A stretch of 64,000 nucleotides of DNA from Omnitrophica bacterium GWA2_41_15 (GTDB lineage Bacteria > Omnitrophota > Gorgyraeia > Ghiorseimicrobiales > Ghiorseimicrobiaceae), in contig CAKKQO010000035.1 in assembly GCA_919902105.1 (NCBI GenBank), positions 67,547-131,546 on the forward strand. The letters are read 5' to 3'. The translations under genes and the position numbers were made by a program. Under the pieces are notes generated by a model that saw only the letters and a list, made by a program, of their open reading frames with translations, made no database searches and had not been told where the DNA came from. Positions 13,969 through 61,131 of this stretch are shown piece by piece (positions within the stretch are counted from its first letter, which is position 1; each line of letters starts with the position of its first letter).

Positions 13969-13995
13969 CTTTATAAATCACATATAGTTATATAA

Positions 13996-14030: not shown

Positions 14031-14053
14031 TAGGGAGGGCTGGCAAAAATTTC

Positions 14054-14081: not shown

Positions 14082-14109
14082 TTTACTTGTTGTTTATGGG
14101 GGGATAATT

Positions 14110-15278: not shown

Positions 15279-15283
15279 TTAAA

Positions 15284-16405: not shown

Positions 16406-16460
16406 CTGGAGAATTTATAGCGGGCTTAAATGGACAATAGCGAATAAAGGAGCAACTTTA

Positions 16461-26111: not shown

Positions 26112-26121
26112 ATCTGGTTTT

Positions 26122-35941: not shown

Positions 35942-36940
35942 ATGGCCGATATAGCCTTAGAAGTATTAAATGATAATGAGGAAAGCAGCGAGTTGAATGA
36001 ATTTATTGAACAATCTCTTAATGGAACAATTTTTCACCATCCTAAATTTTTATCTTATCATGGAGAGGAAAAATTTTCTAAGAATGTTTATGCGATTAAT
36101 CATTTCCTTTTTCGGAAGAAAAGCAAAATAATCGCCTTTCTGCCGGGCATTATTTATAAAAGCGAGAAAGGATTGCAGTTTAATTCTCCCTATGGAGCGT
36201 CTTTTGGAGGTTTTGTTTCAAATGAGATTAGCTTCGAGGCGTGTGATGAAATTATGAATATGACTCTGAAATATCTTTTAAGCGAAAGAGGTATGGCGGA
36301 AATCAATATAGTTCCCGTGACAAGTATTTATCATGCCAATATGGTTAATGATTATTTTGAGTTTCTTTATCTAAGCAGAGGGTTTCGGCTTAGGGATAGT
36401 GAATTGACTATTGTTGTACGAGTATCCCAGGATGATGATTATCCGCTAAGTAGTTATGAGCATAGAGTAAAGAAATTTATTAAGCAAGGCGAAAGAAACG
36501 GCATTAATTTTAAAATATGCGATGATATTGATACCGCTTATGAAATAATTGAAAGCAACAGAGTAAGGTTTTCCAAGAAACCTACTCATACCCTTGAGGA
36601 ATTAAAGGCTATCTCAAGATTATTTCCAGGCCGTCTTTTGCAATTTATCGCATTTAAAGACGAGCTTCCCATAGCCGTTTGTTGTTTATTATTATGCAAT
36701 GATTTTGTGGCATATTCTTTTTATATCGATCAGATGGGAACTCATTCCGCGCTAAGGCCGGTAAATTTTATCATAAATCAAGTGTTGATATGGCTAAAAG
36801 AGAATAATTACTCGTATCTTGATTTTGGCCCATCTACATTTGGATTAGAGCCTCATCGTTCTTTGATTTTCTTTAAGGAGGGTTTTGGAGGCAAGGGAAT
36901 AATTAAGCATTTTTATCAGTATAAAATAGAGAATTCATGA
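35942..36940 (+). CDS. FemAB/GNAT-like acyl- or aminoacyl-transferase
   Basis: 332 aa. Two-lobed layout and sequence (FHHPKFLSYHGE...; C-terminal LDFGPS...FKEGFGG) resemble FemAB-family/BioF2-like acetyltransferases. Pattern-level call only. Confidence 0.5.
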   Translation: MADIALEVLNDNEESSELNEFIEQSLNGTIFHHPKFLSYHGEEKFSKNVYAINHFLFRKKSKIIAFLPGIIYKSEKGLQFNSPYGASFGGFVSNEISFEACDEIMNMTLKYLLSERGMAEINIVPVTSIYHANMVNDYFEFLYLSRGFRLRDSELTIVVRVSQDDDYPLSSYEHRVKKFIKQGERNGINFKICDDIDTAYEIIESNRVRFSKKPTHTLEELKAISRLFPGRLLQFIAFKDELPIAVCCLLLCNDFVAYSFYIDQMGTHSALRPVNFIINQVLIWLKENNYSYLDFGPSTFGLEPHRSLIFFKEGFGGKGIIKHFYQYKIENS

Positions 36941-37648: not shown

Positions 37649-38584
37649 ATGAAAGCGATTAATCTGGATAAGAAATCTGAAATATTTTTTGAGCCTTATC
37701 ATTACGCCTCTCGGGCTGATATTTTTGAAAAATGTGATGGGGAAAAATTACCATCAGTTGAAGATTATTTTGAGGAGTTTTTCGGAAGGAAGGTTATGAT
37801 TACCATTAATGGGCGTATGGCGATTTCCCTTATTCTGCGGTCTCTTGATCTGAAAATTGACGATGAAATTTATATTACTACGACATTCGAAAAACCGAAT
37901 GTATCAAGCTGTGTTACCAGTACTATATTTAATTTTTGCAGGCCGTCGCGTGTTCTTACCGATAAAACCAAAGCCATTTTTTTAATTCACGAATTTGGCG
38001 TGGTTCATCCGCGTATCCATAAACTACGTTTAATAGCCGACGCGAGAAATATTCCGCTTATTGAAGATTGCGCTCATACTATTAATTCCAGGTCCAATGG
38101 TAAAGCAGTGGGAGCAAGCGGTGATTTTGTCGTATGCTCCTTTCCAAAGATTTATCCTATTCAATATGGAGGTCTTTTAATCGGAATGAATACCTCATAT
38201 AAGCCAACTTTAGTTCAGTCTGCGATTATAGAAAAAATTCGGAATATTCTTCCCAAATATATGCGTTTGACAAATGAATATTCCCAAAAAAGGCGGGATA
38301 ATTTCCAATTCCTCGCGGTGAAATTTAAGGAGTTATTGTTGCTGCCGTTTCATCAAATCGATAAAGACGTATCTCCCTCTCTTTTTTTTCCTTTAGTTAC
38401 CGACAGATACGAGGAAGTTATGGAGAAAGCATCCAACTCTAAAATAGAGAACGCCTTATGGCATGGCACTAATATAGTAGTTCTTCCTGTTCATCAGTTT
38501 TTAGTTGAAGAAGAGCTTGAACGTATTTTTCAAGTTGTAAAAAGCGTTTATGAAAAAAATCATTCTGAATCCGTTTGTAGGTAA
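37649..38584 (+). CDS. Divergent, short DegT-like PLP enzyme (aminotransferase or dehydratase fold)
   Basis: 311 aa. INGRMAISLIL, IEDCAHT and CSFPKIYPIQYGGLL parallel the DegT motifs ASGTxAL, EDxAQA and SFxxxKxxxxGEGG. Confidence 0.55.
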   Translation: MKAINLDKKSEIFFEPYHYASRADIFEKCDGEKLPSVEDYFEEFFGRKVMITINGRMAISLILRSLDLKIDDEIYITTTFEKPNVSSCVTSTIFNFCRPSRVLTDKTKAIFLIHEFGVVHPRIHKLRLIADARNIPLIEDCAHTINSRSNGKAVGASGDFVVCSFPKIYPIQYGGLLIGMNTSYKPTLVQSAIIEKIRNILPKYMRLTNEYSQKRRDNFQFLAVKFKELLLLPFHQIDKDVSPSLFFPLVTDRYEEVMEKASNSKIENALWHGTNIVVLPVHQFLVEEELERIFQVVKSVYEKNHSESVCR

Positions 38585-40139
38585 ATTTATAAAATCTAAG
38601 CGTACATTCTTTGCGATTGTGTTCTTGGTTTTTTTTAATTCATTAATACAGGGATATTTTATTAGTCAAATAGATTTTATAAGTCCTCAAGATACAGGGT
38701 TGTTGAGTATCACGAGAAAGATTGTTTCTCCCGGCACCTTTACGGAGGCAGAGCAGGAATTAATGGAGCCTTATAAAATATATCCGCCTATTTATTCGGC
38801 AATCTGCGGAGTTATATACTTTTTTACGGGGGATTTGGATGGGGCTCCTAAAATTTACCACATAATTTTTAGCAGCGCACTTATAATTCCGGTATTTTTA
38901 ATCTCGTTAAGGCTGTATGGAAGAAAAACCGCGGTTATCAGTTCACTTTTATTAACTTTCCTTCCAGCATTATCAATTACCATTTATTATTCGGTAAGGC
39001 ATATAAGTTTTATCTTTTTTCTTTATCTCAGCCTCTATTTTATTTTGGCTGGCGATTTAGACAATAAAATTAAATATTATGGTTTAGGAGGTTTTTTGCT
39101 CGGGATTACATACCTGATTAGAGAAGAAGTCTTAATTATTCTTTTTGCTGTTTTGCTTGTTATATTTCTAAAAGGCCTCTTGAAAAAAAATGGCCGATTT
39201 GAAGGTATCTATAAAAAAGAATTAGTTGTTATATGTTTATTTTTACCTCTTTTCTTGCTTTCCTCTCTCTATACATATAATTCTACAGGCAAATGGTCGC
39301 TAGGAGGCGATAAGAAGTGGAAATATGACCATTTTATAACAGGCCAGGGAATATTGGATGGAATTAAAACCCCAGACATAGAATACGGTTATAAGGTTTA
39401 CGGTTCTGCCGAAGAAAATAATAATAGTATATTAAATGCAATCAAGAAACATCCGAAAGCCTATTTTTCCAGAATTATTAATAATTTTAAAATACTTTTT
39501 GATGTGCTTCCTTCTCCGGCAGTCATTCCTTTTTATCTCTATCTTTTTATGGGAATAGCGTTTTTTGAATTGTTGGGTAATCCGGACAGATTGAAGTGTT
39601 CTATTATATTTATAGCGGTTATTGTTTCATTCATTTCATTATGGACAGTTGTTTTTTTTGTCCAGGCGAAGCATCTAGTTCCTCTCGTGCCAATTTTGGC
39701 AATCTGGATATCGTACGGTATTAAGCTAACGCAGGATAAAATTAGGATGAGAAATTTAATCTATTTTCCGTCGATTATTACATTATTATCTTTAGCCGTT
39801 ATTTTTCTAACTTATACTAAGTCAATTTCTGAAGATATACCAAGGGAAACGAAAGAAATCGGGGGATGGCTCAAAGAAAACACATCATCGGCGGATATAA
39901 TAGTTGTTCCGAACGAATGGTTTGACGAACGGCTTTATCTGCAGTATTACTCCAGAAGAAAGGTTAGAGAAATTCCTGCATGGATGGCAGATTTTAAAAA
40001 TGGTATAAACATAAAAGAATCAATATTTATTTTAAAAGATGACCAATTCAATTCAAATGATAATAAGCTTACAATGGAGATTATTAAAATATTTGAAAAT
40101 ATAAATAAAAAAATAATCGTTTATAGGGGTGTTGGATGA
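38550..40139 (+). CDS. GT-C fold membrane glycosyltransferase (ArnT/PMT_2-like) #1
   Basis: 529 aa, polytopic N-terminal two-thirds plus a soluble C-terminal domain. PPIYSAICGVIYFFTG...LISLRLYGRKTAVISSLLLTFLPAL is ArnT/PMT-like. Confidence 0.7.
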   Translation: MKKIILNPFVGKFIKSKRTFFAIVFLVFFNSLIQGYFISQIDFISPQDTGLLSITRKIVSPGTFTEAEQELMEPYKIYPPIYSAICGVIYFFTGDLDGAPKIYHIIFSSALIIPVFLISLRLYGRKTAVISSLLLTFLPALSITIYYSVRHISFIFFLYLSLYFILAGDLDNKIKYYGLGGFLLGITYLIREEVLIILFAVLLVIFLKGLLKKNGRFEGIYKKELVVICLFLPLFLLSSLYTYNSTGKWSLGGDKKWKYDHFITGQGILDGIKTPDIEYGYKVYGSAEENNNSILNAIKKHPKAYFSRIINNFKILFDVLPSPAVIPFYLYLFMGIAFFELLGNPDRLKCSIIFIAVIVSFISLWTVVFFVQAKHLVPLVPILAIWISYGIKLTQDKIRMRNLIYFPSIITLLSLAVIFLTYTKSISEDIPRETKEIGGWLKENTSSADIIVVPNEWFDERLYLQYYSRRKVREIPAWMADFKNGINIKESIFILKDDQFNSNDNKLTMEIIKIFENINKKIIVYRGVG

Positions 40140-41680
40140 CGCAAATGGCAATGCCGAACAAAAATATAAAAAAGATGCGAGGAAAAGTCAAAAAGATTGC
40201 TCTAATTGAACCGATTAGGAATTTTTCACCTAATATGGGTTTAATTACTTTGGCCGCAATCCCGAAGTTAGCTGGTAAGGAAGTTAAAATCCTATACATG
40301 TTTGACTATGAATACAAAAGTGGTGATCAATTATCAAACTATTCATTAAAAAAAATAAAAGATTTTGATCCGGACATAATTGGGGTCGGATTTTTATCTG
40401 CCGAGTGGCATGCTGCGAAAGTCGTGATCGAAAGATTAGCAACTGCCTTTGATAAAATTATTGTAGCTGGCGGCAGGCACCCATCGTCTTTTCCAAAAGA
40501 TGTTTTAACTTGGGGTGCTGATTTTGTTATAGTTGGAGAAGGTGAGACAGCTTTTGAAGAATTAATCAATTGTATTGAAAATAACGGCGCAGGGCTTGAA
40601 TCTTCGGTAGGAATTGCTTTTTATAAAGAAGATGGGGCATTTCACCTGAATCCACGATTAAAAGAGACCGCAAATCTCGATATTATCCCTGCGTATCATT
40701 TGATACCCTACCAAAATTTTATTAACACAAAACTTGGCGTGGTTGGCAGATATTTGAAATCTGGCTGGCTGGCAACAAGCAGGGGATGCTTTAGCAAATG
40801 TATATATTGTAGAGATAATAATTTTGGCGGTCATTTACGTTTCAGGTCTATGGATGCCGTTTTTGATGATATAAGATTACAACTGAGTAATTATGACCTG
40901 GATTGTTTTTATATCGTTGACGACATGTTCGCTGTGAAAGAAAAACGCGTAATTGAATTTTGTGACAGATTTATAGCGATCCAAAAAGAATTCAATAAGA
41001 TGCTGTATTTTGCTGCAACAGCTAGGACTGACACTTTGACAAAACCAATGGTTAATGCGATGGAAAAGGCAGGATGCACACAATTAACTTTTGGTGTTGA
41101 ATCGGGCAGCCCTAAAATACATGATATTTTAAATACAAATAAAAGTTGCACAACGATTGTCCCTGCTTTTGAAATGTTAAAGGAATCCGAGATTGATACT
41201 TTTGTGAATTTTATTATAGGCGTTCCCGGAGAAAACGAAGACGACATCAACCTAACATTAAAAATAATTGATTCGATAAAACCTACTACAGTTGGCGTTA
41301 CATTTTTAACTCCCTATCCTGGGACAAGATTATACGATTTGGCATGTAACAACAATTGGCTGGATGGAGATATGAAAAAAGAATTTGTTTACCGCCATAA
41401 TTATAAACCTCAGCTTAACGTAGGGATTGATCCATCGCTATTGTTGAATAGGGCAAAACGTATTTATAAGAAAACCTCCCGAAAAACTATCTTAAATGTT
41501 TTTACTCGCCATGAATCTATAGAATTAATATTTGATGTTATCAAGATGATGTTTAAGCACCCTGTTAAGGTATTAGATACGATAAAGAGCATTTTAACAG
41601 GAGATATTGATAAATTTAAAACAAAATATAGGCATCTGTTATATGTAAATACTGGATTAACAATTAATAACGGGTTATAA
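40136..41680 (+). CDS. Cobalamin-binding-domain (class B) radical SAM enzyme #5
   Basis: 514 aa. VGFLSAEW...VAGGRHPS...VIVGEGETA, then SRGCFSKCIYCRD. ATGA overlap with the upstream GT-C gene. Confidence 0.85.
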   Translation: MTQMAMPNKNIKKMRGKVKKIALIEPIRNFSPNMGLITLAAIPKLAGKEVKILYMFDYEYKSGDQLSNYSLKKIKDFDPDIIGVGFLSAEWHAAKVVIERLATAFDKIIVAGGRHPSSFPKDVLTWGADFVIVGEGETAFEELINCIENNGAGLESSVGIAFYKEDGAFHLNPRLKETANLDIIPAYHLIPYQNFINTKLGVVGRYLKSGWLATSRGCFSKCIYCRDNNFGGHLRFRSMDAVFDDIRLQLSNYDLDCFYIVDDMFAVKEKRVIEFCDRFIAIQKEFNKMLYFAATARTDTLTKPMVNAMEKAGCTQLTFGVESGSPKIHDILNTNKSCTTIVPAFEMLKESEIDTFVNFIIGVPGENEDDINLTLKIIDSIKPTTVGVTFLTPYPGTRLYDLACNNNWLDGDMKKEFVYRHNYKPQLNVGIDPSLLLNRAKRIYKKTSRKTILNVFTRHESIELIFDVIKMMFKHPVKVLDTIKSILTGDIDKFKTKYRHLLYVNTGLTINNGL

Positions 41681-41721: not shown

Positions 41722-42240
41722 ATGAAAGTATTGTTTTACGGTTTAACTTTATTTTGTTTAGCTTTCTTTGTGCATTTGGCGGTATGGAGGTATTGTATTC
41801 CTAATAATAGGAAAAAGATGTTGATACAAATATTTATTGGCACTTTGGCAATAGGTATTCTTGCTTTGTGGGAAAAGATACATTTTATAACTATATTTGG
41901 ACTGGATAGTTATGTCAATTTACCTGAAATGATCCATCTCTCTCTTTTTTTCTTATCTCTTACCATTACATATTTTGTCATATATAACGCAATGGTAATA
42001 GGCAGTGTTACGAATACCATAATAACATGTATTATGGATACAGGTTTAAATGGACTTGATAAACATGCACTGGAGCAGAGGATGCGAGATGAGTTGTTAT
42101 TACGAATAAAATGTCTTATCAATGATAAGATTATTTATGATAATTCTGGCAGGTATTTCTTAACATCAAAGGGTATTTTATATTTACGCATAGTTAGGTT
42201 TTATCGGAAATTAATGAATTATACCGATGAGATAGGTTAA
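41722..42240 (+). CDS. Hypothetical membrane protein (about 3 TM helices plus a C-terminal winged-helix-like tail), paralog a
   Basis: 172 aa. Three hydrophobic segments, then ...LLLRIKCLINDKIIYDNSGRYFLTSKGILYL. Same architecture as 42250-42777. Confidence 0.55.
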   Translation: MKVLFYGLTLFCLAFFVHLAVWRYCIPNNRKKMLIQIFIGTLAIGILALWEKIHFITIFGLDSYVNLPEMIHLSLFFLSLTITYFVIYNAMVIGSVTNTIITCIMDTGLNGLDKHALEQRMRDELLLRIKCLINDKIIYDNSGRYFLTSKGILYLRIVRFYRKLMNYTDEIG

Positions 42241-42249: not shown

Positions 42250-42777
42250 ATGTCTTTTGAATACGTGCAGATAATTATGCCGGTGTTGGGTTTAATTTTG
42301 AATGCTGTTACTCATATTACCAGCATGAGGATTGTTTTCAATTTAGGAGTAGCTGCTTCCATATGTTTAGGATTTATAGCCGGTTTTTTTAGTATACTAA
42401 TATTTGAGGTTTCTTTTTTAATATATATGCATGGCTCAGTAAAAGAGTTTCTTTCTATTACTATTGTTAATTTAATAAGTTACTCATCGTTAGGATTTTT
42501 GTATTGTAATTTTGTTGGGCTTGGAATATCGGCTCTGAGAACCAGATTTCTTATAGAAATGGATAAATCTGTTGGAGGCATTACCATAGAGAGATGTATA
42601 GAACGTTATTCTCCGGAAGAGATATTAGCAAGGAGGACAAAAAGATTGATTAATAGCGGCCAAATAATTTTAAAGGATGGAAGATATTATATTTGCAAAT
42701 CATACTTGTTCGTAATAGCGAAAATTATAAAGGTTATGACATTAATAGTTTTTGGTAACAAAAAAGTTGATTTATAA
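42250..42777 (+). CDS. Hypothetical membrane protein (about 3 TM helices plus a C-terminal winged-helix-like tail), paralog b
   Basis: 175 aa. Three hydrophobic segments, then ...ILARRTKRLINSGQIILKDGRYYICKSYLF. Confidence 0.55.
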   Translation: MSFEYVQIIMPVLGLILNAVTHITSMRIVFNLGVAASICLGFIAGFFSILIFEVSFLIYMHGSVKEFLSITIVNLISYSSLGFLYCNFVGLGISALRTRFLIEMDKSVGGITIERCIERYSPEEILARRTKRLINSGQIILKDGRYYICKSYLFVIAKIIKVMTLIVFGNKKVDL

Positions 42778-42778: not shown

Positions 42779-43591
42779 ATGGATTCCAGATCGGCTGATA
42801 TATCACCGGAAGAAATTAGAAGAATTATTCTTATGCAGGCAAAACGGGCCGGAGTTGGGCATATTGGTTCTGCCCTGTCGATTGTTGATATTATAGCGGT
42901 ATTATATTCTAACATTTTACGAATTAATGATCCCAATGATCCTGATCGGGACCGTTTTATTTTATCTAAAGGCCATGCGGCAATGGCAATCTACGGGGTT
43001 CTTTTTTTGAAAGGCTGGTTAACAAAAAAGGAACTCAATACCTATTGTGCCGATGAGAGCTTGTTAGGTGTTCATCCTGAACATACCCTTAGAGGCATAG
43101 ATTTTTCAACAGGATCGCTTGGGCATGGCTTGTCAATAGGTATTGGATCGGCGTTAGCGGCAAAAAAACAGAAGTCTTCACGCCGTGTGTTTGTCTTGTT
43201 AAGCGATGCTGAGTGCAATGAAGGTTCTATCTGGGAGGCAATTATGTTTGCAGCCCACCACAAAATATCTAACTTAGTAGCTATTATTGATCTTAATGGG
43301 CAACAAGCATTCGGTTACACCAAGAACGTCTTAAATATATCTCCAATGGCAGAACGATGGCGGGTATTTGGGTGGGATGCGCATGAAGTTGACGGGCACA
43401 ATCCGCATGAGATTACAAAAACTATAAACGGTTTAGATACTGATAGTTACTCTTTTCCTCATGTAATAATTGCGCATACTACATTTGGCAAAGGGGTATC
43501 CTACATGGAAAATAAAATTAAATGGCATTACTCTTCTATGTCAGAAGAAGAGTATCAATTAGCTTTGAAGGAAAATGAAGGATTGTTATGA
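42779..43591 (+). CDS. Transketolase, N-terminal (ThDP pyrophosphate-binding) subunit
   Basis: GHIGSALSIVDI, SKGHAAMAIYG, GSLGHGLS and LLSDAECNEGSIWEA motifs. ATG at 42779 chosen over the track TTG at 42752. Confidence 0.9.
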   Translation: MDSRSADISPEEIRRIILMQAKRAGVGHIGSALSIVDIIAVLYSNILRINDPNDPDRDRFILSKGHAAMAIYGVLFLKGWLTKKELNTYCADESLLGVHPEHTLRGIDFSTGSLGHGLSIGIGSALAAKKQKSSRRVFVLLSDAECNEGSIWEAIMFAAHHKISNLVAIIDLNGQQAFGYTKNVLNISPMAERWRVFGWDAHEVDGHNPHEITKTINGLDTDSYSFPHVIIAHTTFGKGVSYMENKIKWHYSSMSEEEYQLALKENEGLL

Positions 43592-44523
43592 GAAAGGCTT
43601 TTATTGCTACGCTTGAAAAATTGGCTGAAGATAATGAACGCGTGATGCTCTTGACAGCTGATGTTGGATATTCGGTTCTAGAATCTTTTGCTGAAAAATT
43701 TCCGGATAGGTTTTATAATGTTGGAGTGGCAGAGCAGAATATGGTGGGCATTGCTACAGGCCTGGCTGAAGCAGGTTTTATCCCATTTGTCTATTCTATC
43801 GCTACATTTGTTTCTCTCAGGGCCTATGAATTTATTCGCAATGGGCCAATCTTGCATAAATATCCCGTTCGTATTATTGGCGCAGGCGGGGGGTTTGAGT
43901 ATGGACATGCTGGAATAACTCATCATGCCTTGGAAGATATAGGAGTTATGCGTTTACAGCATGGGATTACAGTAATAGCGCCCGCGGATTATAAACAAGC
44001 CAGCAATGCTTTGTTGGGCACATGGAATTTAGACGGCCCGGTTTATTACAGAATAGGCAAAGATGATAAACTTACGGTTCCCGGATTAAACGGCCGTTTT
44101 GAATTGGGCCATACCCAGCTACTTTCCAAAGGAGATGATTTGTTGTTTATAGCAATGGGGAGTATTGCTATTGAAGTGGTTAGGGCCGCGGAGATATTAA
44201 AGGGGCATGATATCAGTTGCACCGTGGTAATAGTGGCAAGCTTAGAGCCTTCGCCTATTGATGATCTGATTGAGGTTTTATCGCGTTTCAGGTTAGTATT
44301 TACGGTTGAAGCCCATTATGTTAAAGGAGGATTGGGGTCTTTGATTTCAGAGATAGTGGCTGATAATAACATTAATTGTAAGGTTAAACGATGCGGAGTA
44401 AATACAATGCCGACTGGCAGCTCAGGCAGCCAGGCCTATTATTATAAAAAATATGCGTTATCCGGCGAGATGTTGGCTGATATCGCGCTGAGAGATTTTT
44501 TACATGAAGGGAAAGAGGAGTGA
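43588..44523 (+). CDS. Transketolase, C-terminal (pyrimidine-binding) subunit
   Basis: 311 aa. VGVAEQNMVGIATGLAEAGFIPFVYSIATF motif. ATGA overlap with the N-terminal subunit gene. Confidence 0.9.
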   Translation: MRKAFIATLEKLAEDNERVMLLTADVGYSVLESFAEKFPDRFYNVGVAEQNMVGIATGLAEAGFIPFVYSIATFVSLRAYEFIRNGPILHKYPVRIIGAGGGFEYGHAGITHHALEDIGVMRLQHGITVIAPADYKQASNALLGTWNLDGPVYYRIGKDDKLTVPGLNGRFELGHTQLLSKGDDLLFIAMGSIAIEVVRAAEILKGHDISCTVVIVASLEPSPIDDLIEVLSRFRLVFTVEAHYVKGGLGSLISEIVADNNINCKVKRCGVNTMPTGSSGSQAYYYKKYALSGEMLADIALRDFLHEGKEE

Positions 44524-45470
44524 AAGATTATAGTAATGATTTAAAAAATCAACATATTGATAAAAAGGGAATCTATACTGTTCGTTTTATTTCTACTGAC
44601 TGTTTATTTTGCAAAGAAAAAAGAGAGCATGTTCTTTATCCCGCCCGTTTATATAATAATAGTTTTACTGATTATACTTTTAGCGCTAGGCGTTCACGTA
44701 AGCGGGAACATTACAGAATAGTTAAATGCAGCACTTGCCAATTGGTAAGATCGAATCCAGTGGTAAGCGAAGATATGATAGATAGTTTATATGCTCATAG
44801 CAAATTTATATTTTCAGACGAAGCGCCGTATGTTGCCAGTACTTACGCTATCTTGCTAAAAAGACTTATGAATAAGTATAATATCAAGCTAAATAGTTTA
44901 TTAGAGCTTGGATGCAGCAGCGGTTTTTTCTTGAATGAAGCCCTTTCCATTGGATTTAATGACGTTGTTGGATTTGAGCCAAGCAGAGACTGTTATCAAC
45001 GCGCGGAAGATCGTATTAAAGGGCGTATTATTAATGATATTTATAAACCTGAACTTTTAAAAGATAAAAAATTTGATTTGGTTTGTATTTTTCATCTCAT
45101 TGATCATTTATATAACCCTCAAGCTGTTATATCTTCATTAACGCAAGCCTTAAACGTTCCTCATGGATATTTACTTATAATATGCCATGATGTTGAAAGT
45201 TGGAGCGTCAAATTACTCGGTGGACAAAATCCAATGTTTGATATTGAGCATATTTATTTATTTTCTAAAAAAACAATAGCTATGCTTTTAGAAGGCGCGG
45301 GATTCAGAGTTTTAGAGGTAGAGTCGCTTCCTAATACCTATCCTTTTGGATATTGGCTGCGTATGTTACCTGCGGGGAATAAGATTGTCAGTGTATTGCC
45401 TAAGTGCATGCAAAATATACCGATAAAAATAAAAGCGGGTAATTTATATATTTTTTGCAAGAAAGGATAA
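44520..45470 (+). CDS. Class I SAM methyltransferase with an N-terminal Cys4 zinc ribbon
   Basis: 316 aa. CLFCKE...CSTCQLVRSNP, then LLELGCSSGFF. GTG start overlapping the upstream stop; the start is uncertain. Confidence 0.7.
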   Translation: MKDYSNDLKNQHIDKKGIYTVRFISTDCLFCKEKREHVLYPARLYNNSFTDYTFSARRSRKREHYRIVKCSTCQLVRSNPVVSEDMIDSLYAHSKFIFSDEAPYVASTYAILLKRLMNKYNIKLNSLLELGCSSGFFLNEALSIGFNDVVGFEPSRDCYQRAEDRIKGRIINDIYKPELLKDKKFDLVCIFHLIDHLYNPQAVISSLTQALNVPHGYLLIICHDVESWSVKLLGGQNPMFDIEHIYLFSKKTIAMLLEGAGFRVLEVESLPNTYPFGYWLRMLPAGNKIVSVLPKCMQNIPIKIKAGNLYIFCKKG

Positions 45471-45474: not shown

Positions 45475-46464
45475 ATGTTAACTGATAGATGTATTTCAGT
45501 GGTAGTTGTTTGCTATAATGATGAAGGCAGCATAGTTGAATTATTGCGGCGTCTTTCTGTGGTTATGGATAAGATTACCCCGAACTGGGAAGTAATTTAT
45601 GTTAACGATGACAGTCCGGATAACTCAGAAAAATTACTTTTGGAGTTGGCTAAAAGTAATCAGAGGTTAACGGTAATATCGCATGCGCGAAATTTTGGCG
45701 CGCAGACCGCGTTTACAACAGGGATGTCACAGGCAAGCGGAGATTCAGTAGTGATTATGGATGGTGATTTACAGGATCCTCCTGAGTTGATTGAGAAGTT
45801 TTGCGAAAAATGGTTAGAAGGATACCAAGTAGTATTCGGTATTAGGGCCAAGAGACATGAAGGTTGGTTTCGTAATTTTGGATATAGGCTTTTTTATAGG
45901 ATTTTTCAAAAGATTTCATATTTGGATATTCCACTGGATGCGGGCGAATTTTCTTTAATGGAGAGAGTAGTCATTGATGTTATTCTTGCGTGTCCGGAGC
46001 ATGATAGGCTTATCCGGGGACTCCGTGCTTATGCCGGTTTTAAGCAGGTCGGCATAGAATTTGAGAGGCCCGAGAGGTATAGCGGCCAATCCACACAGGG
46101 CCTGTTTGATTATTTTATGTGGGCGTATAAATCATTTACCTCCTTTTCACTTGTGCCGCTGCGTTTAATCTCATTACTGGCTTTTGCGACAACCATTGTA
46201 ACATTAGGGCTTTTGCTGTATCACATCTCCAATTATTTTATGGGGGTCGCGTCTCCCAAGGGGGTTATGACTATTGTCATTTTAATATTATCAATTGGTT
46301 CTATTACCATGTTTTCTCTTGGTGTAATTGGAGAATATCTGGGTAGGCTTTTTATAGAAATTAAGAATAGGCCTGAGCCCATAATTCGCACTATAGTAAA
46401 TGACCATCGTTCGGCCCCAAGGGAATGGTTGGGGCGTAAAAATTCAATTCACAGAAAGGAATAA
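45475..46464 (+). CDS. GT2 polyprenyl-phosphate glycosyltransferase (GtrB/ArnC/DPM1-like) with C-terminal TM helices
   Basis: 329 aa. VSVVVVCYNDE, YVNDDSPDNS and MDGDLQDPPELI motifs, then two C-terminal hydrophobic helices. Confidence 0.85.
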   Translation: MLTDRCISVVVVCYNDEGSIVELLRRLSVVMDKITPNWEVIYVNDDSPDNSEKLLLELAKSNQRLTVISHARNFGAQTAFTTGMSQASGDSVVIMDGDLQDPPELIEKFCEKWLEGYQVVFGIRAKRHEGWFRNFGYRLFYRIFQKISYLDIPLDAGEFSLMERVVIDVILACPEHDRLIRGLRAYAGFKQVGIEFERPERYSGQSTQGLFDYFMWAYKSFTSFSLVPLRLISLLAFATTIVTLGLLLYHISNYFMGVASPKGVMTIVILILSIGSITMFSLGVIGEYLGRLFIEIKNRPEPIIRTIVNDHRSAPREWLGRKNSIHRKE

Positions 46465-46474: not shown

Positions 46475-47584
46475 ATGATGAACAGATCTATTAGAAGGGC
46501 GAATATACTTACCAAATTAGTATCAAAAATTTTATATGCTAAGTTAACACGGCAGAGATGCCCGATTTTTATGGGGCTATATATTACGAATAGGTGTAAT
46601 CTTCGATGTTCTTATTGCTTTGTTAACGTTGACAATCGCATGGACAATCCTTGTAGAAGGGGATTTACCAAAGATGAGATTTTTAAGCAAGTAGATGAAT
46701 TGTATGCGATGGGCATGCGATGGGTATTTATGTTGGGTGGAGAGCCGCTGGAACATGAAAATATTGGAGAGATAGTGAAATATATAACTGATAAGGGGAT
46801 ACTCCTTCATCTTCTTACTAATGGAACGCTGATTGAGCAAAAAATAGACGCAATTGAAGCAGCTGACGGGGTTTGCGTTAGTATAGATGGAGGGGAAGAA
46901 GCTACTGATAAGTTGAGGGGGAAAGGTGTTTTTCGCCGCGCGCTTAGGGGAGCAGAGATTGCGTTGTCTAGAGGTATGAATACCAGAATCCATGCTGTCC
47001 TTAATAAATACAGTTTTAATGATATGGAAATGCTTGCTAATATAGCAAGGGAAAAGGGCTTGACCATTACTCTTTCGCCTATAAATGATGCTGAGTGCAA
47101 AAATGATCCTAATAGTGAATTTGTAATGACAGATGAAGAATATAGAAATTTTTATATACAATACCGCAAACTTAAAGAAAAGGGCTATCCAATCGCAAAT
47201 TCTTATTATGCTATTGATAAGGTGATCAATTGGCCTATTGGGTATCATGAGCGCATTGCCCCTGAACAGAGCTTTCACGGTTATAAAGTCATCCCCTGTG
47301 TTATGGCAGAAACACATGCCTGCATTGATGCTGAAGGAGCAATGTTTACTTGTATTCAACAATTTATGGACGGGCTAAACATTAAAGAAGTGGGTATCAA
47401 AGAAGCATGGGATTATTTGCCCAATAAGCGTAAAAGATGTAATAGCTGCGCTTCAATGAATACTATTGAGACCGCGGCATATCTAAGGTTACGCCCTGAA
47501 ATTATCATGGAAGGGATAAAATTCTTTTTTGGGCGCAGGAAAAGCATAAGTAATGAAAAGCTCTGCCAAAAGTTACATAAGTAA
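46475..47584 (+). CDS. Radical SAM enzyme with SPASM-like C-terminal domain (type I; paralog of 26985)
   Basis: NRCNLRCSYCF, GGEPLEHENI, SIDGGEEATDKLRGKGV; C-terminal PCVMAETHACIDAEGAMFTC...CNSCAS. The ATG at 46475 is preferred over the track start 46400, which overlaps the GT2 gene. Confidence 0.8.
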   Translation: MMNRSIRRANILTKLVSKILYAKLTRQRCPIFMGLYITNRCNLRCSYCFVNVDNRMDNPCRRGFTKDEIFKQVDELYAMGMRWVFMLGGEPLEHENIGEIVKYITDKGILLHLLTNGTLIEQKIDAIEAADGVCVSIDGGEEATDKLRGKGVFRRALRGAEIALSRGMNTRIHAVLNKYSFNDMEMLANIAREKGLTITLSPINDAECKNDPNSEFVMTDEEYRNFYIQYRKLKEKGYPIANSYYAIDKVINWPIGYHERIAPEQSFHGYKVIPCVMAETHACIDAEGAMFTCIQQFMDGLNIKEVGIKEAWDYLPNKRKRCNSCASMNTIETAAYLRLRPEIIMEGIKFFFGRRKSISNEKLCQKLHK

Positions 47585-48316
47585 ATGTTAAAAAATCAAG
47601 ATATTAATTCCGCTTTTGATCAAGATGTTGAGCGTTTTGGATCCTATCAATATACAAAAGGAACACGCTATAGTACTATCATTGCGAACGAACGTTATAC
47701 GCAGATGATATTATCATCTGTTGATTTTACCGGAAAATCGGTTGTTGATATTGGCTCCGGGGATGGCACTTATACCGCTCATTTGGCCAAACGGTCTAAT
47801 GCCGCGTCTATTTTAGGCATTGAGCCGGCGCCTAAGGCTGTTGAGCGGGCGCGAGCTGTTTACGGTAATATATTTTCCAATTTGAATTTTGTTTGCGGAT
47901 ACCCCGATATATTAATAAAACAGAAAAAGAGGTTTGATATTGCTGTATATAGAGGAGTAATTCATCATATGGCCAGTCCTCGTGATGAGCTTTCAAAAGC
48001 GTTTTTATTAGCGGATACTTTGATTGTTTTAGAGCCAAATGGGCTTAATCCGCTTATGAAAATAGTTGAAAAGCTATCAAGTTATCACAAACAGCATCAG
48101 GAACGATCATTTTTGCATTATTCAATAAGCAGATGGATTACCGAGGGGGGCGGGGTAATAAAAAAAATATGTTTTTTTGGTATGGTGCCGTATTTTTGTC
48201 CTTATATCATTGCGATAGCAGGCAAATTTATAGAGCCATTTGTTGAATCGCTTCCTGTGTTACGTTCTATCTGTTGCGGGCAGTATCTCGTTGTCGCGAC
48301 AAGGGGAGGGGGATAA
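47585..48316 (+). CDS. Class I SAM methyltransferase
   Basis: 243 aa. VVDIGSGDGTY motif I and VIHHMA. Confidence 0.7.
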   Translation: MLKNQDINSAFDQDVERFGSYQYTKGTRYSTIIANERYTQMILSSVDFTGKSVVDIGSGDGTYTAHLAKRSNAASILGIEPAPKAVERARAVYGNIFSNLNFVCGYPDILIKQKKRFDIAVYRGVIHHMASPRDELSKAFLLADTLIVLEPNGLNPLMKIVEKLSSYHKQHQERSFLHYSISRWITEGGGVIKKICFFGMVPYFCPYIIAIAGKFIEPFVESLPVLRSICCGQYLVVATRGGG

Positions 48317-48320: not shown

Positions 48321-49121
48321 TTGTTTAAGGGTATTTGTGTAATAATTGGCTGTTCACGAGGGCTTGGCGCCGCATTAGTGGATGAGTTGATTAATGATGG
48401 GTGTCCTATGGTTATCGGTGTGGCTCGAACCAAATTAGAAGATATAGAACAGGGGAAAGAGTGGTTAGCCTCTAATCGCTATAAACATGTGATTGCTGAT
48501 ATTGGAGCTGAAAGTTCTGTTAATATTTTAACGAAGATATCTTTAGAATTACCTATGGAGCCGTTACTCATAATATTTAATGCCGCTTGTCTTACTTCTG
48601 ATGTTACAGCCGATAAAAGAATTAATTATGATGTTTTTAAAAAAGTCAATCGCGTTGGAGTTGATGGATTAGGTTATGTTCTTCAGTCATTTGAGGAGCA
48701 TTTATGCTTTTATGGAGGGATTTTTGTTGGAATATCTTCTACCAATGCGATTAAGCCCCCTGTTTTTGAATATAGATTGGCATATGGAGCTTCTAAGGCA
48801 TATCTTGATATGGCATTGCGAAATCTTTCTTTTTTATGGCCGCCTAAAATAAAGGTTATTAATTTTCATTTGGGGCATATAGGCGGAGGCCATGACCTTG
48901 GTTATTTACCTGTTTTCCTAAAAGCGACTTACAATTCGGCCGCAAAAAAAATTATTAGAGAAGTATCTCGTCAAAGAGTTCCTTCAGAAGTTACCTATCC
49001 AGTTATCTATCGGATAGCATACCAGTATATTTTAAAAATTATCCCCGATTCAGTTTATATCAATTGCAGCAAGTTTTTTTGTTTTTTGTTAAAGAGAGGC
49101 GCAAATAATAAGAACCGCTAA
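48321..49121 (+). CDS. Short-chain dehydrogenase/reductase (classical SDR)
   Basis: VIIGCSRGLGAAL (TGxxxGxG-like) and YGASKAYLD (YxxxK). In-frame TTG at 48321, preceded by AAGGGGAGGGGG, is chosen over the track start 48240, which overlaps the upstream gene. Confidence 0.7.
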   Translation: MFKGICVIIGCSRGLGAALVDELINDGCPMVIGVARTKLEDIEQGKEWLASNRYKHVIADIGAESSVNILTKISLELPMEPLLIIFNAACLTSDVTADKRINYDVFKKVNRVGVDGLGYVLQSFEEHLCFYGGIFVGISSTNAIKPPVFEYRLAYGASKAYLDMALRNLSFLWPPKIKVINFHLGHIGGGHDLGYLPVFLKATYNSAAKKIIREVSRQRVPSEVTYPVIYRIAYQYILKIIPDSVYINCSKFFCFLLKRGANNKNR

Positions 49122-49135: not shown

Positions 49136-50584
49136 ATGAATTTAACGGATATTTTTAAATCTCAAAATAATCATATTCAAATTTTATTGATATTATCCAT
49201 AACAATAGGATTGATATATTGTTTATTTTTTCCTTCCGGCAAAATAGACGGGGATGAATTTGAGTATAATATTATAGCAAAAAATTTAGCAGAACATAAT
49301 GCCTTCTCTATGGCAGAATATCCTCCTTTTGATCCAACCAATAAGCGCGAACCTCTTTATCCATTTTTTTTATCTTTGATTTATAGGGTTTTTAGAGGCT
49401 CATTTTTTGCTGTAATGATTGCTCAAGCATTTATTTTTTCATTAACAGTCATTTTTATTTATTCATTTATTTCAAAAATAGCTGATAATAAGTCCGCGTT
49501 TTATTCATCCATATTCGTAACGGTTTGTCCGCCATTGGCAAATTATACATCCTATATTTTATCGGAAGCCCTCTTCATTTTCCTGCTGGTAGTTTTTGTA
49601 TATATATCCACTATGATGAGAGCTCATCAGACGAATAAATTATTTGTTGCCAGCGGTGTTATGTTGGGATTATTAACATTATGCAAGGCGCATATGTTAT
49701 ATTTTTTCCCTTTCTTAATCTTATGTATTATCATTTCAAAATGGGGAAAAAATATTATTCTTCCTATTCTCCTTGTCACGGTTGCTTTTTTAATTACCCT
49801 GGCGCCATGGTTAGGCAGGAATTATTATTTATTCAATACATGGAAGATAACATCGCAAAGAGCGGGTATGACGCTAAATGTTAGGGCAATGAAGGCTTCT
49901 TATAACGGGAATGATTATAAAAATGCGGCAATCTATTATTTTTCTGAGGAATTGGGAAAGATCATCTATCCTGATGCGATTATTAAAAGTGAGGCTTTTA
50001 TGAGCCAGTTCAACGTTGTTGTTGAAGGAAGAGAAGATGAAAAATATTGGAGAGATTATATAAAGGAAAAAAATTTTACTCTTAGAGAAGGCGCAATCAT
50101 AGACCTTAAAACGCAAAAGTTTACGAGAGATGGATTGTCGGAGGTTGAGATAGATAAAATACTCACCACTGAAGCCTTGCAGAAAATTAAAGCCCATCCC
50201 TTTAAATATCTGCTGCAAACCCCTTTTGAGTTAATAAAAATGACTACTTTCACATACCTGCCTTTATTAAATGAAGAATATGTGAGTTCACGAATAAATG
50301 CTGCTAATAAAAGTTTAGTTTTTTTAATAAGAAGCATAATCCGTTTAATCGCTTATCCAATTTTAGCGTTAGCTATTTATGGTATATATCGATATCGCGA
50401 TAGATGGAGAGAATTTTTGCCGATCCTATTTATTATTATATTTTTTAATTTATTCTATGGCTTAACGTTTGGTTATGCTCCCTACGCTCTTCCTCTTATG
50501 CCATTTTATATTATGTTTGCAACCATGGGATGGTTTAAATTAAGGGAGCGTAAGAATATTATCTCAGTTCAACAAAATTTGTGA
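49136..50584 (+). CDS. GT-C fold membrane glycosyltransferase (ArnT/PMT_2-like) #2
   Basis: 482 aa, polytopic. First-loop acidic motif DGDEFEY; REPLYPFFLSLIYRVF...FIYSFISKIADNKSAFYSSIFVTVCPPL is ArnT-like. Confidence 0.7.
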   Translation: MNLTDIFKSQNNHIQILLILSITIGLIYCLFFPSGKIDGDEFEYNIIAKNLAEHNAFSMAEYPPFDPTNKREPLYPFFLSLIYRVFRGSFFAVMIAQAFIFSLTVIFIYSFISKIADNKSAFYSSIFVTVCPPLANYTSYILSEALFIFLLVVFVYISTMMRAHQTNKLFVASGVMLGLLTLCKAHMLYFFPFLILCIIISKWGKNIILPILLVTVAFLITLAPWLGRNYYLFNTWKITSQRAGMTLNVRAMKASYNGNDYKNAAIYYFSEELGKIIYPDAIIKSEAFMSQFNVVVEGREDEKYWRDYIKEKNFTLREGAIIDLKTQKFTRDGLSEVEIDKILTTEALQKIKAHPFKYLLQTPFELIKMTTFTYLPLLNEEYVSSRINAANKSLVFLIRSIIRLIAYPILALAIYGIYRYRDRWREFLPILFIIIFFNLFYGLTFGYAPYALPLMPFYIMFATMGWFKLRERKNIISVQQNL

Positions 50585-51414
50585 GTTATATGATTGCACT
50601 TTATATTTTGATTTTGTTAGTTTTTTTATATTCTTTATTTATTGAGCCTCGCCATATCCTAATAAAAGAAGTATCTATTGCGGTTGATAATATTCATAAT
50701 GGCTTAGATAAAATTAAGATCATTCATATTACAGACCTGCATATTAAAAAGCTGGGTTATTTAGAAAGAAAGGTCGTAGATAGGATTAATCAGCTATCGC
50801 CTGATATATTGTTTGTTACCGGCGACTTCATCAAGAATGATGCTGGAATAAAACATTGCGCTGAAATGTTTAAAAATATAAATGCGAAGTATGGAATATA
50901 TGGAGTATTGGGGAATAATGATTATAGAAAGTTTTATATATTTCCTATAAATACTGCTGAATTAAAAAGGTCTCTTGCGGACAGTGGCGTAAAGTTACTG
51001 TTCAATGAAAGCTATACTATTAATATAGATGGAACTAATATCAACATATTTGGGGTTGAGGATTCGATTTATGGTAGTCTTGATATATCAAGATTGAGGG
51101 ATAGTGTTTTAAATAAGCATATAAACATTCTCCTTTCTCATTCTCCAGCTATCCTTAGAAATCTCAATGGTTTTAGTCCAGATTTGATTTTGACAGGGCA
51201 TACACACGGCGGCCAGGTGAGAGTTCCACTCATAGAATATTTATGGGCCCCTCTTCCCATAGGTTCTCCTCGGAAATATTGCAGAGGTTTATTTAAATTA
51301 TCAAATAAAACGAAGATTTATGTCAATCAAGGCATTGGGACGAGTTTATTGCCTGTTAGATTTTTATGTCCGCCGGAGATTTCTGTGATTAAATTAGGAA
51401 ATAATTCTCTATGA
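50581..51414 (+). CDS. Membrane-anchored calcineurin-like metallophosphoesterase
   Basis: 277 aa. N-terminal TM helix, then ITDLHI, TGDF, GNNDY, LSHSP and TGHTHGGQV motifs. Confidence 0.8.
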   Translation: MSYMIALYILILLVFLYSLFIEPRHILIKEVSIAVDNIHNGLDKIKIIHITDLHIKKLGYLERKVVDRINQLSPDILFVTGDFIKNDAGIKHCAEMFKNINAKYGIYGVLGNNDYRKFYIFPINTAELKRSLADSGVKLLFNESYTINIDGTNINIFGVEDSIYGSLDISRLRDSVLNKHINILLSHSPAILRNLNGFSPDLILTGHTHGGQVRVPLIEYLWAPLPIGSPRKYCRGLFKLSNKTKIYVNQGIGTSLLPVRFLCPPEISVIKLGNNSL

Positions 51415-59922: not shown

Positions 59923-61131
59923 ATGAAGGCATTATATATCTCTTACGACGGAATGACAGATCCTTTGGGGCAGGCGCAGGTTATTCCATATTTAATCGGT
60001 CTGACAAAGAAAGGTCATAATTTTACCATCTTAAGCTATGAAAAATATGATAAATATATTCAATTTGGGGAAAAGGTTAGGAAGCAATTAAAAGATAATT
60101 CTATTGTATGGAGGCCTTTTCGTTACCATAAGAGATTTTCCGTGGTCGCGACTTCTTATGATATTTTTTCCGGGTTTATTTATTTATTATTTTTTATACC
60201 AGCGCAAAAAATCAAAATTTTGCATTGCAGAAGTTATATAACCTCTATCTTGGGGTTGTTATTCCATAAGATATACGGGACAAAATTTATTTTTGATATG
60301 CGCGGTTTCTGGGCTGATGAGAGATTGGAAGGGGGTATATTTAAAAAAAATTATATATATTACTTTTTTAAATATTTGGAGAAACAGTTTATAAAAAATT
60401 CCGATGCAATCATTGCTTTGACTGTAAATTCAATTGAGGAAATGAAAACTTGGCATTATGTTTCCGAAAAATATAATAACAAATTCTATCATATAACCAC
60501 CTGTTGCGATATTGATAAGTTTAGGCAAACTTATAACTCCAGATTACAAAAAAAAGTTGATATTAATCATCTTAATTTTGTTTACATAGGTTCAATTGGA
60601 CCATGGCATTCTTTAAAGGATGTATCTGATTTTATTGTGTTTACATATGAGTATCTACCTGCATCACGCTTTAAAATTATTGTCAATTCTGGCAAAGAAC
60701 AACTCTCCCAATTTATCGGATCGAAAGGGTTGAATAGTAACCGATTTATTGTTGATTCTGTACCGCACAATAAAATACCTGAGGCTTTGATGGGTGCAGA
60801 TATAGGTCTTTTTTTTATACCTCCGGTATATGCAAAAAAGGCATCTTCACCTACTAAATTGGGTGAAATGTTATCAGCTGGTATTCCTGTTATAACTGGT
60901 CATTCTGTTGGAGATGTTGACCAATTAATAAGTGGTAATAGGGTGGGCTATATTATTAAAGAAGGTGGTATAACGGAATACAAAAAAGCGATTGATTATG
61001 TCATTAATTTAATTAAAGAAAATAGAGAAAAACTGCTTGAAAGATGTCTTGTTGTAGCAAATGATTATTTTTCTCTTGAGAAGGGGATAGAAAAATATCA
61101 TAGAATATATGAGAGATTAACGAATGGGTAG
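59923..61131 (+). CDS. GT4 glycosyltransferase
   Basis: 402 aa. N-terminal MKALYISYDGMTDPLGQAQVIPY and C-terminal SPTKLGEMLSAGIPVI (E-x7-E-like). Confidence 0.75.
   Translation: MKALYISYDGMTDPLGQAQVIPYLIGLTKKGHNFTILSYEKYDKYIQFGEKVRKQLKDNSIVWRPFRYHKRFSVVATSYDIFSGFIYLLFFIPAQKIKILHCRSYITSILGLLFHKIYGTKFIFDMRGFWADERLEGGIFKKNYIYYFFKYLEKQFIKNSDAIIALTVNSIEEMKTWHYVSEKYNNKFYHITTCCDIDKFRQTYNSRLQKKVDINHLNFVYIGSIGPWHSLKDVSDFIVFTYEYLPASRFKIIVNSGKEQLSQFIGSKGLNSNRFIVDSVPHNKIPEALMGADIGLFFIPPVYAKKASSPTKLGEMLSAGIPVITGHSVGDVDQLISGNRVGYIIKEGGITEYKKAIDYVINLIKENREKLLERCLVVANDYFSLEKGIEKYHRIYERLTNG

Follow-up and report, generated by a model that had tools for sequence, protein, structure and literature searches.

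A split transketolase in an Omnitrophota glycan cluster as a candidate sugar-branching enzyme

A 64,000-nucleotide stretch of DNA from Omnitrophica bacterium GWA2_41_15 (contig CAKKQO010000035.1; hereafter the window) was analysed, in which a transketolase is encoded as two overlapping open reading frames (ORFs), ORF A and ORF B, inside a glycan cluster. We propose, with a probability of about one half, that the two products make up a heteromeric, thiamine diphosphate (ThDP)-dependent enzyme of transketolase fold that would act on a nucleotide-activated keto-sugar rather than on pentose-phosphate intermediates, transferring a hydroxyacetyl group to it ahead of export on a lipid carrier.

The two-gene transketolase and its active site

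An earlier reading of this DNA, made from the sequence alone, had described the genes as the N-terminal (TK-N) and C-terminal (TK-C) halves of a transketolase, joined by an ATGA overlap and lying between a membrane-protein pair and a zinc-ribbon methyltransferase. Coordinates and overlap (four bases, 43588-43591) were borne out by the sequence and by the domains found, and the flanking genes by the hydrophobic segments of the membrane proteins and the four cysteines of the methyltransferase (Table 1). The gene pair is tightly packed: one base separates the start of ORF A from the TAA (42775-42777) that closes the upstream membrane-protein gene, and ORF B overlaps the methyltransferase gene by GTGA, the start codon of the latter being the GTG at 44520. 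Pfam assigned Transketolase_N to ORF A (1.4e-38) and Transket_pyr and Transketolase_C to ORF B (6.6e-30 and 5.5e-18). The NCBIfam model NF004559 ('transketolase') was matched at model positions 23-278 by ORF A (3.5e-74) and 321-615 by ORF B (7.4e-54); the scores of 250.2 and 183.0 bits give a simple sum of 433 against a cut-off of 488, in a model built for the fused protein. These predicted domain assignments are far beyond chance. Besides marginal matches of ORF A to E1_dh (5e-5) and phosphoketolase (7e-8), the domains found in the pair with Pfam and NCBIfam were of the transketolase, DXS and E1 types only, and the N/M/C architecture of acetolactate synthase-like TPP enzymes was not found. 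Among solved structures, the Carboxydothermus hydrogenoformans split transketolase comes nearest (PDB 6YAK/6YAJ; 3e-61 and 1.8e-51). Both ORFs are full length (relatives span 266-271 and 307-312 amino acids (aa)), and a 270-aa protein identical to ORF A has been called on public contigs, up to 150 kb long, of a Candidatus Omnitrophota metagenome-assembled genome (MAG). A second transketolase-like gene was not found within the 64-kb window.

Alignment with human transketolase and 6YAK showed that the cofactor and donor residues His28, His66, His99, His250, Asp143 and Asn173 are kept in ORF A; in the alignment with human transketolase and 6YAJ, Arg2, Ser29, Glu49 and His112 are kept in ORF B. 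Asp143 and Asn173 form the ThDP-Mg2+ motif in the version S-D-A...N, His66 is the diphosphate-binding histidine, and Glu49, within an AEQN motif of ORF B, is the cofactor-activating glutamate. The histidines that contact the C1 hydroxyl of the donor are also kept (His28, His99 and His250 of ORF A and His112 of ORF B, aligned with E. coli His26, His100, His261 and His473). By these alignments the two chains make up a ThDP enzyme in which both the cofactor site and the ketol-donor histidines are intact. The Carboxydothermus enzyme shares both the two-chain architecture and the cofactor residues.

The acceptor side differs from the canonical enzymes. In ORF B, Gly100 stands at human His416 (E. 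coli His461; substrate-phosphate binding in canonical enzymes), Ala108 at human Asp424 (E. coli Asp469; binding of the acceptor C2 hydroxyl) and Lys158 at human Arg474 (E. coli Arg520; substrate-phosphate binding). The human positions were read from the alignment made in this analysis, and the E. coli residues are those that we take to be their equivalents. The canonical phosphate site (E. coli Arg358, Ser385, His461 and Arg520) is thus reduced to Arg2 and Ser29, with His changed to Gly100 and Arg to Lys158, and the position of the acceptor Asp is occupied by Ala, Asn or Leu across the clade. Canonical split transketolases in the same alignment keep the His and, in most cases, have Arg at the other position. 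Expressed as a motif, the canonical THAG...GEDG.(S/T)HQ followed by (L/F)GR, which reads THAG...GEDG..SHQ and LGR in 6YAK/6YAJ, is replaced in ORF B by GAGGGFEYGHAGITHH and IGK. Motifs of the ORF A clade are VGHIGS (canonical SGHPGG), WHY (canonical WHG) and SDAE. The GDG to SDA change of ORF A was dropped as a clade signature because SDG also occurs in canonical Patescibacteria enzymes. Judging from these residues, the loss of His and Asp plausibly makes room for a pyranose ring. More speculatively, Arg2, Ser29 and Lys158 might hold a sugar-1-phosphate, the distance of which from C4 is about that of the 5-phosphate from C1 in ribose-5-phosphate.

A distinct clade in nucleotide-sugar loci

A full-library search with ORF B gave 13,340 relatives at E <= 1e-3, canonical transketolases among them. 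ORF B was aligned with its 150 nearest 50%-identity cluster representatives (33-74% identity); Gly occupied the His site in 141 of the 151 aligned sequences, and the Asp was absent from most of them. Products of the clusters behind ten representatives were named only 'transketolase'. In a neighbour-joining tree, a simple one without support values, the Gly-type TK-C sequences formed one cluster apart from canonical split transketolases. The sequence-only reading had named tight clustering with non-glycan housekeeping split transketolases as the result that would speak against it; the pair fell instead in the glycan-linked, Gly-type clade. Genes for nucleoside diphosphate (NDP)-sugar short-chain dehydrogenases/reductases (SDRs), DegT proteins, GT2 glycosyltransferases or methyltransferases were present within 6 kb at 15 of 21 non-canonical loci, compared to 1 of 42 canonical loci, after removal of four DXS mis-hits (Fisher P 1e-7, computed with the four mis-hits still among the non-canonical loci).

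Relatives of ORF A at 59-80% identity came from Nitrospirota, Thermodesulfovibrionales, Acidobacteriota, Cyanobacteria (68-70%), Verrucomicrobiota, Riflebacteria, Chloroflexota (Chloroflexaceae), Gemmatimonadota (Gemmatimonadaceae) and Anaerolineales; below this band, identity falls steeply to 48% or less. All relatives with enough flanking sequence (loci L001-L006, L009, L011, L013, L015, L088 and L089) have the pair inside a glycosyltransferase/NDP-sugar locus, in which a GT2 gene usually follows directly 3'. This GT2, of the GtrB/ArnC type, is the most constant neighbour of the pair. The window GT2 is 72-73% identical to those of L001 and L004 and 41-45% identical to those of L011 and L013, all GtrB-type; the GT2 of L088 has 333 aa, and L002 and L089 carry a short form of 232-233 aa, with similar short matches in L009 and L015. 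The four-base overlap between TK-N and TK-C is common to L001, L002, L004, L088 and L089. A further four-base overlap, between TK-C and the downstream GT2, occurs in L002, L088 and L089, and in L001 and L004 a methyltransferase gene lies between TK-C and GT2. A few genes 3' of the pair, close relatives encode a 323-aa extended SDR of the dTDP-glucose 4,6-dehydratase family (TIGR01181 1.5e-41, below the cut-off).

The loci most like the window are L001 and L004 (Nitrospirota, Thermodesulfovibrionales), which share with it the order TK-N, TK-C, zinc-ribbon methyltransferase and GT2, and in addition a radical SAM gene (SAM, S-adenosylmethionine). The zinc-ribbon methyltransferase adjoining the pair is 58% (L001), 57% (L004) and 38% (L013) identical to that of the window, and the homologues of the radical SAM enzyme at 46475 in L001 and L004 are 45-46% identical. 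Both loci also carry a B12-radical SAM gene and more methyltransferase genes, and a WecD-like amino-sugar N-acyltransferase gene directly 5' of the pair. B12-radical SAM genes adjoin transketolase pairs in L001, L004, L008 and the Azospirillum locus L095. The genomic basis for the earlier idea that radical SAM enzymes modify the product is inconstant: radical SAM genes recur in the window, L001, L004, L008, L093 and L095, but are absent from many relatives and so are not placed in the conserved core.

Cultured relatives were the most informative and gave the strongest clue to function. On plasmid pHY1 of Methylovirgula sp. HY1 the order is rfbF (glucose-1-phosphate cytidylyltransferase), rfbG (CDP-glucose 4,6-dehydratase), SDR, rfbH, TK-N and TK-C, with GT2 and GtrA genes adjoining; this is the order of the 3,6-dideoxyhexose pathway. 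On a plasmid of Paenibacillus cellulosilyticus KACC 14175 the order is rfbF, rfbG, a TylC3/TcaB9-type C-methyltransferase, an SDR::TK-N fusion (635 aa, with an SDR of the extended type) and TK-C; further genes of the locus encode a TylF-type O-methyltransferase and GT2 enzymes, among them a GT2/GtrA fusion. Both TK-C proteins have the non-canonical signature. They share 35-36% identity with ORF B, and the TK-N parts share 41-45% with ORF A. Identity between the fused Paenibacillus SDR domain and the Methylovirgula SDR is 38% (E 1e-67), and the latter shares 36% identity with the SDR found beside the close relatives of the window pair (E 1e-60). A partnership between transketolase and SDR is supported by this fusion, together with adjacency and orthology. 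In the plasmids of Solidesulfovibrio carbinolicus and Azospirillum argentinense the pair occurs with methyltransferases, radical SAM or B12-radical SAM enzymes and sugar-nucleotide enzymes, arrangements that resemble that of the window itself.

Among ordinary plasmid matches we inspected L091 (Chondrinema, 7133-8924) and L092 (Paraburkholderia, 7045-8906) and left aside most matches on Rhizobium, Agrobacterium and Sinorhizobium plasmids. Both pairs adjoin sugar ABC transporter genes, with isomerase and glycerol kinase genes also present in L091 and dehydrogenase genes in L092, and both look catabolic. Substrate-pocket variation among split transketolases is accordingly wider than the glycan clade. 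Since L091 and L092 also lack the His or the Asp, loss of either residue does not by itself prove an NDP-sugar substrate and was rejected as such proof.

The proposed reaction and its alternatives

By homology, ORF A would bind the ThDP diphosphate through Mg2+ (Asp143 and Asn173) and ORF B would supply the activating Glu49. A ketol donor, either a 2-ketose or hydroxypyruvate, would then give dihydroxyethyl-ThDP, as the kept histidines His28, His99, His250 and His112 suggest. Gene context, the gene fusion and the altered acceptor pocket point to a third step, in which a 4,6-dehydratase-type enzyme would provide an NDP-4-keto-6-deoxy or NDP-4-keto-3,6-dideoxy hexose and the carbanion would attack its C4 carbonyl, yielding a 4-C-hydroxyacetyl branched sugar with a tertiary alcohol. 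An SDR may reduce the side chain, in a step like that of YerF, with methyltransferases and radical SAM enzymes tailoring the product. From family membership, the GT2 at 45475-46464 would load the sugar onto undecaprenyl phosphate, and the GT-C enzyme at 49136-50584 would add it to a surface glycan in the periplasm. The suggestion from the sequence-only reading that the enzyme modifies a sugar instead of serving the pentose-phosphate pathway gained partial support, from the distinct clade without the canonical phosphate-binding residues and from its NDP-sugar and glycosyltransferase loci.

That reading had also drawn on YerE of yersiniose biosynthesis, and the analogy fits: the pairs of the cultured relatives lie directly behind CDP-glucose 4,6-dehydratase and RfbH genes, and in one of them TK-N is fused to an SDR. 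YerE adds activated acetaldehyde to CDP-3,6-dideoxy-4-keto-D-glucose (PMC12247030), and in the yersiniose module the yer genes come behind the ddh genes (PMC5399914). With YerE and YerF of Yersinia pseudotuberculosis the proposed pathway has in common the addition of a ThDP carbanion to the C4 carbonyl of a CDP-4-keto-3,6-dideoxyhexose, followed by side-chain reduction, and in Methylovirgula the transketolase pair and SDR occupy the yer position with rfbF, rfbG and rfbH. YerE, however, belongs to the decarboxylase (acetolactate synthase-like) family, uses pyruvate as donor and gives an acetyl or 1-hydroxyethyl branch, whereas the window pair has the transketolase fold, its likeness to YerE being limited to gene position and proposed function. 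Because the histidines for a hydroxylated donor are kept, the branch is expected to be hydroxyacetyl or 1,2-dihydroxyethyl.

The nearest known kind is that of the split-gene transketolases of miharamycin and amipurimycin biosynthesis, which have been proposed for hydroxyacetyl transfer along with 13 mined Streptomyces candidates, none of them characterised in vitro (PMC12247030). They too are two-gene transketolases in a sugar-tailoring cluster with a predicted C2 ketol addition to a keto-sugar. They act in actinomycete antibiotic pathways, whereas the window pair lies in an Omnitrophota cell-surface glycan locus, belongs to a clade of many phyla and accompanies a GtrB-type lipid-carrier glycosyltransferase; the two are likened by description, not by sequence. 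E1 alpha/beta-type enzymes (alpha-keto acid dehydrogenase 2) branch sugars in the aldgamycin, kosinostatin and kibdelomycin pathways (PMC12247030). These are likewise two-subunit ThDP enzymes that place a C2 branch on a deoxy-keto-sugar, but they belong to another branch of the ThDP superfamily, use pyruvate as donor and serve actinomycete secondary metabolism. Literature searches gave nothing relevant on transketolase pairs in O-antigen, lipopolysaccharide (LPS), capsule or Leptospira rfb loci, nor on 'split transketolase' or transketolase with nucleotide-sugar, branched sugars or CDP-glucose genes, and Steitz et al. 2022 do not mention transketolases. The idea that the Coxiella O-antigen region carries transketolase genes was dropped, since none of the papers matched by Coxiella LPS terms mentions transketolase.

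Several points weigh against a keto-sugar acceptor. The usual acceptors of transketolases are aldehydes, not ketones. Neither rfbF, rfbG and rfbH nor an orthologue of the transketolase-associated extended SDR was found in the window, where the only nearby reductase is a classical SDR, and the nearest 4,6-dehydratase-like genes (14346 and 17480) lie about 25-28 kb upstream of the pair. Arg2, Ser29 and Lys158 could still bind a sugar phosphate, the catabolic-looking L091 and L092 deviate at the canonical His and/or Asp as well, and the TK-C tree is of the simple kind described above. No sugar-branching transketolase, members of this clade included, has been characterised by assay (PMC12247030).

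If the natural preference for aldehydes were retained, the ketol unit would pass to the aldehyde of an activated sugar, for example a 6-aldehyde, and lengthen its chain to a higher-carbon, octose-type sugar. The NDP-sugar and GT2 context suits such a reaction as well as it suits branching, and the window encodes UDP-sugar dehydrogenases with a 6-aldehyde intermediate (10227 and 11576). These dehydrogenases, however, are not conserved beside the pair in relatives, and the cultured loci supply 4-keto-6-deoxy or 3,6-dideoxy sugars (rfbG and rfbH), which offer a ketone and no aldehyde. We regard chain lengthening as unlikely, although it is the best placed of the alternatives.

A little less likely still is a transketolase dedicated to the cluster that works on sugar phosphates, supplying for instance sedoheptulose-7-phosphate for heptose, or another ketose phosphate. 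The window encodes a GT9 heptosyltransferase-like protein (30624), and Arg2, Ser29 and Lys158 could serve for phosphate binding. Among library proteins outside the window we found P0245, a fusion of a canonical TK-C, which keeps His and Asp, with a GmhA-like SIS domain; it represents another way, by sugar-phosphate supply, of tying a split transketolase to heptose or glycan synthesis, and its existence makes that route to a glycan role a real one. The window pair, though, lacks the phosphate-binding His and the acceptor Asp, both of which P0245 keeps. No GmhA, HldE, GmhB, sugar kinase or nucleotidyltransferase was found among the scanned ORFs of the window or beside the pairs of relatives, and the conserved partners are NDP-sugar enzymes and GT2.

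The dihydroxyethyl-ThDP might alternatively be oxidised or dehydrated to a glycolyl or acetyl decoration of the sugar, in the manner of QncN/QncL or phosphoketolase. The WecD-like N-acyltransferase directly 5' of the pair in L001 and L004, and weak XFP_N (phosphoketolase) matches in several relatives, are compatible with such a two-carbon acyl transfer, but most relatives, like the window, lack the acyltransferase, neither in the window nor in relatives was a lipoyl, E2 or carrier-protein partner found, and the phosphoketolase match of ORF A is marginal (7e-8, against 3.5e-74 for transketolase), which leaves this route improbable.

Although the transketolase domain set and cofactor residues are complete, and split transketolases do this job in some lineages, it is very improbable that the pair is a pentose-phosphate housekeeping enzyme that happens to lie in a glycan cluster: it has lost the His and Asp of the canonical split transketolases in the same alignment, clusters in the tree with glycan-associated pairs and not with canonical ones, has relatives of 68-70% identity in cyanobacteria, where the Calvin cycle needs a canonical transketolase, is translationally coupled to a methyltransferase gene with GT2 next after a 4-nt gap, and remains below the NF004559 cut-off in summed score (433 against 488 bits, for a fused-protein model).

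The surrounding cluster and its significance

All genes of the window are on the + strand. Housekeeping genes (aconitase-family, PilT and BioB) occupy its start, and the glycan cluster runs from about 10.2 kb to beyond the window end; the local context of the pair (Table 1) is glycan biosynthesis throughout. The content of the cluster, with 4,6-dehydratase-like SDRs, DegT aminotransferases, methyltransferases and glycosyltransferases, fits the making and tailoring of a keto-sugar.

Table 1. The split transketolase and its neighbours in the window
Feature	Coordinates	Strand	Details
PMT_2 GT-C transferase	38550	+	Upstream of the pair
B12-binding radical SAM enzyme	40136..41680	+	B12-binding 8e-15, Radical_SAM 6e-16
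Two small membrane proteins (172 and 175 aa)	41722..42240, 42250..42777	+	Several hydrophobic segments
ORF A	42779..43591	+	ATG 42779, TGA 43589-43591; 270 aa; Transketolase_N; ThDP diphosphate-binding (PP) half
ORF B	43588..44523	+	ATG 43588, TGA 44521-44523; 311 aa; Transket_pyr + Transketolase_C half
SAM methyltransferase with N-terminal 4-Cys zinc ribbon	44520..45470	+	Methyltransf_23 3e-22; Cys28/Cys31/Cys70/Cys73
GtrB/ArnC-type polyprenyl-phosphate GT2 with C-terminal membrane anchor	45475..46464	+	Glycos_transf_2 3.8e-30
Radical SAM enzyme, not B12-dependent	46475..47584	+	Radical_SAM 8e-24; start per public contig call
Class I SAM methyltransferase	47585..48316	+	Methyltransf_25/11/12/23
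Classical SDR (266 aa)	48321..49121	+	adh_short 9e-13; NCBIfam generic SDR families only
GT-C membrane glycosyltransferase, ArnT-like	49136..50584	+	PMT_2 1.9e-12

The GT2 at 45475 follows the coupled methyltransferase gene after a gap of 4 nt. It matched PgfS (3.3e-60) and ArnC (7.4e-47) in NCBIfam, the GtrB structure PDB 5EKP (sll0501; 1.4e-63) and ArnC structures (1e-40). Together with the flanking PMT_2 GT-C genes (38550 and 49136) it recalls the three-component Gtr and Arn systems (GtrA/GtrB/Gtr and ArnC/ArnEF/ArnT), as do the GtrA gene and GT2/GtrA fusion beside the pairs of Methylovirgula and Paenibacillus. The window differs from these systems in that no GtrA, EamA or ArnE/F homologue was recognised in it with Pfam or NCBIfam. 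To our knowledge, no Gtr/Arn-type system is fed by a transketolase-like enzyme. The GT-C enzyme at 49136 is presumed to be the periplasmic transferase using the lipid-linked sugar, and the SDR at 48321 is a candidate for the reduction of the side-chain carbonyl, the YerF-like step. The zinc-ribbon methyltransferase at 44520 matched TcaB9 and sugar 3-C-methyltransferase structures at 9e-6 and the Methyltransf_13/14-type C-methyltransferase of the Paenibacillus locus at E 3e-10, and on these matches it weakly resembles keto-sugar C-methyltransferases of the TcaB9/TylC3 type. Three paralogous methyltransferases of the window carry the N-terminal CxxC...CxxC zinc ribbon (26077-26982, 44520-45470 and 61124-62044).

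The two small membrane proteins (41722 and 42250) are weak paralogues of each other (BLASTP E 6e-4) with no Pfam or NCBIfam match. They were excluded from the conserved module because no homologue was found beside the transketolase pair in any related locus examined. That they form a heterodimeric flippase for a lipid-linked sugar is speculation.

Radical SAM enzymes are unusually numerous in the cluster: twelve are encoded within about 38 kb (20184-58482). Seven are B12-binding (20184, 29087, 31842, 33457, 40136, 53803 and 57037) and five are of other or SPASM types (26961, 28026, 34931, 46475 and 51411); interspersed are at least seven SAM methyltransferases and four PMT_2 GT-C transferases (38550, 49136, 55266 and 58455). 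This abundance suggests sugars with heavy C-methylation or other rebuilding. The start of the cluster (10227-20108) encodes two UDP-sugar dehydrogenases, a TviC-like epimerase, a GFO-type oxidoreductase, two DegT aminotransferases and a hexapeptide acetyltransferase, and resembles a UDP-2,3-diacetamido-2,3-dideoxy-uronic acid pathway; it also holds two 4,6-dehydratase/UXS-like SDRs (14346 and 17480). Elsewhere in the cluster we noted a FemAB-like protein (35942-36940) that weakly matched the PEP-CTERM-associated FemAB family (3e-9), a DegT-like protein (37649-38584) that is short (311 aa) and in which only the central aminotransferase fold was matched (PLP_IMCC1989-like), and, between GT-C and radical SAM/SPASM genes, an LpxG/YaeI-like metallophosphoesterase (50581-51414; UDP-2,3-diacylglucosamine diphosphatase family, 1e-44, below the cut-off). 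An RmlD-like gene is present at 62131, and rmlA, rmlB and rmlC were not found alongside it. On public contig L096 (10831-20885) the cluster continues for at least 10 kb past the window end, with genes for GT1 enzymes, methyltransferases, a second Wzx-type flippase, a transglutaminase-core protein and a 517-aa protein without family.

In its wider form the proposal is more tentative, and we hold it somewhat less probable than the proposal for the pair itself: a large, widespread and uncharacterised family of transketolase fold may have replaced YerE-type enzymes, transferring hydroxyacetyl onto the ketone of NDP-4-keto-deoxyhexoses and giving C-branched sugars so far undescribed in bacterial surface glycans and carried on undecaprenyl phosphate to decoration in the periplasm, here further rebuilt by B12-dependent radical SAM methylases. 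On the present model the pair would work like YerE, yet from outside the YerE family. It differs from the miharamycin and amipurimycin type in its surface-glycan locus, its far larger clade of many phyla and its coupling to a lipid-carrier glycosyltransferase.

Ketone-accepting transketolases are sought as biocatalysts for chiral tertiary alcohols, and prior candidates were only the 13 unassayed Streptomyces enzymes and the miharamycin and amipurimycin genes (PMC12247030). Our analysis indicates a much larger pool of candidates, spread over many phyla and recognisable by a signature, with two cultured, plasmid-borne systems for which simple substrates are predicted, those of Paenibacillus cellulosilyticus KACC 14175 and Methylovirgula sp. 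HY1. It would follow for annotation that 'transketolase' genes with this signature should not be counted as pentose-phosphate genes in metabolic reconstructions from MAGs. For glycobiology, the proposal would mean that mostly uncultured bacteria have a class of branched sugars in their envelopes and that lipid-carrier glycosylation of the Gtr/Arn type has a new input.

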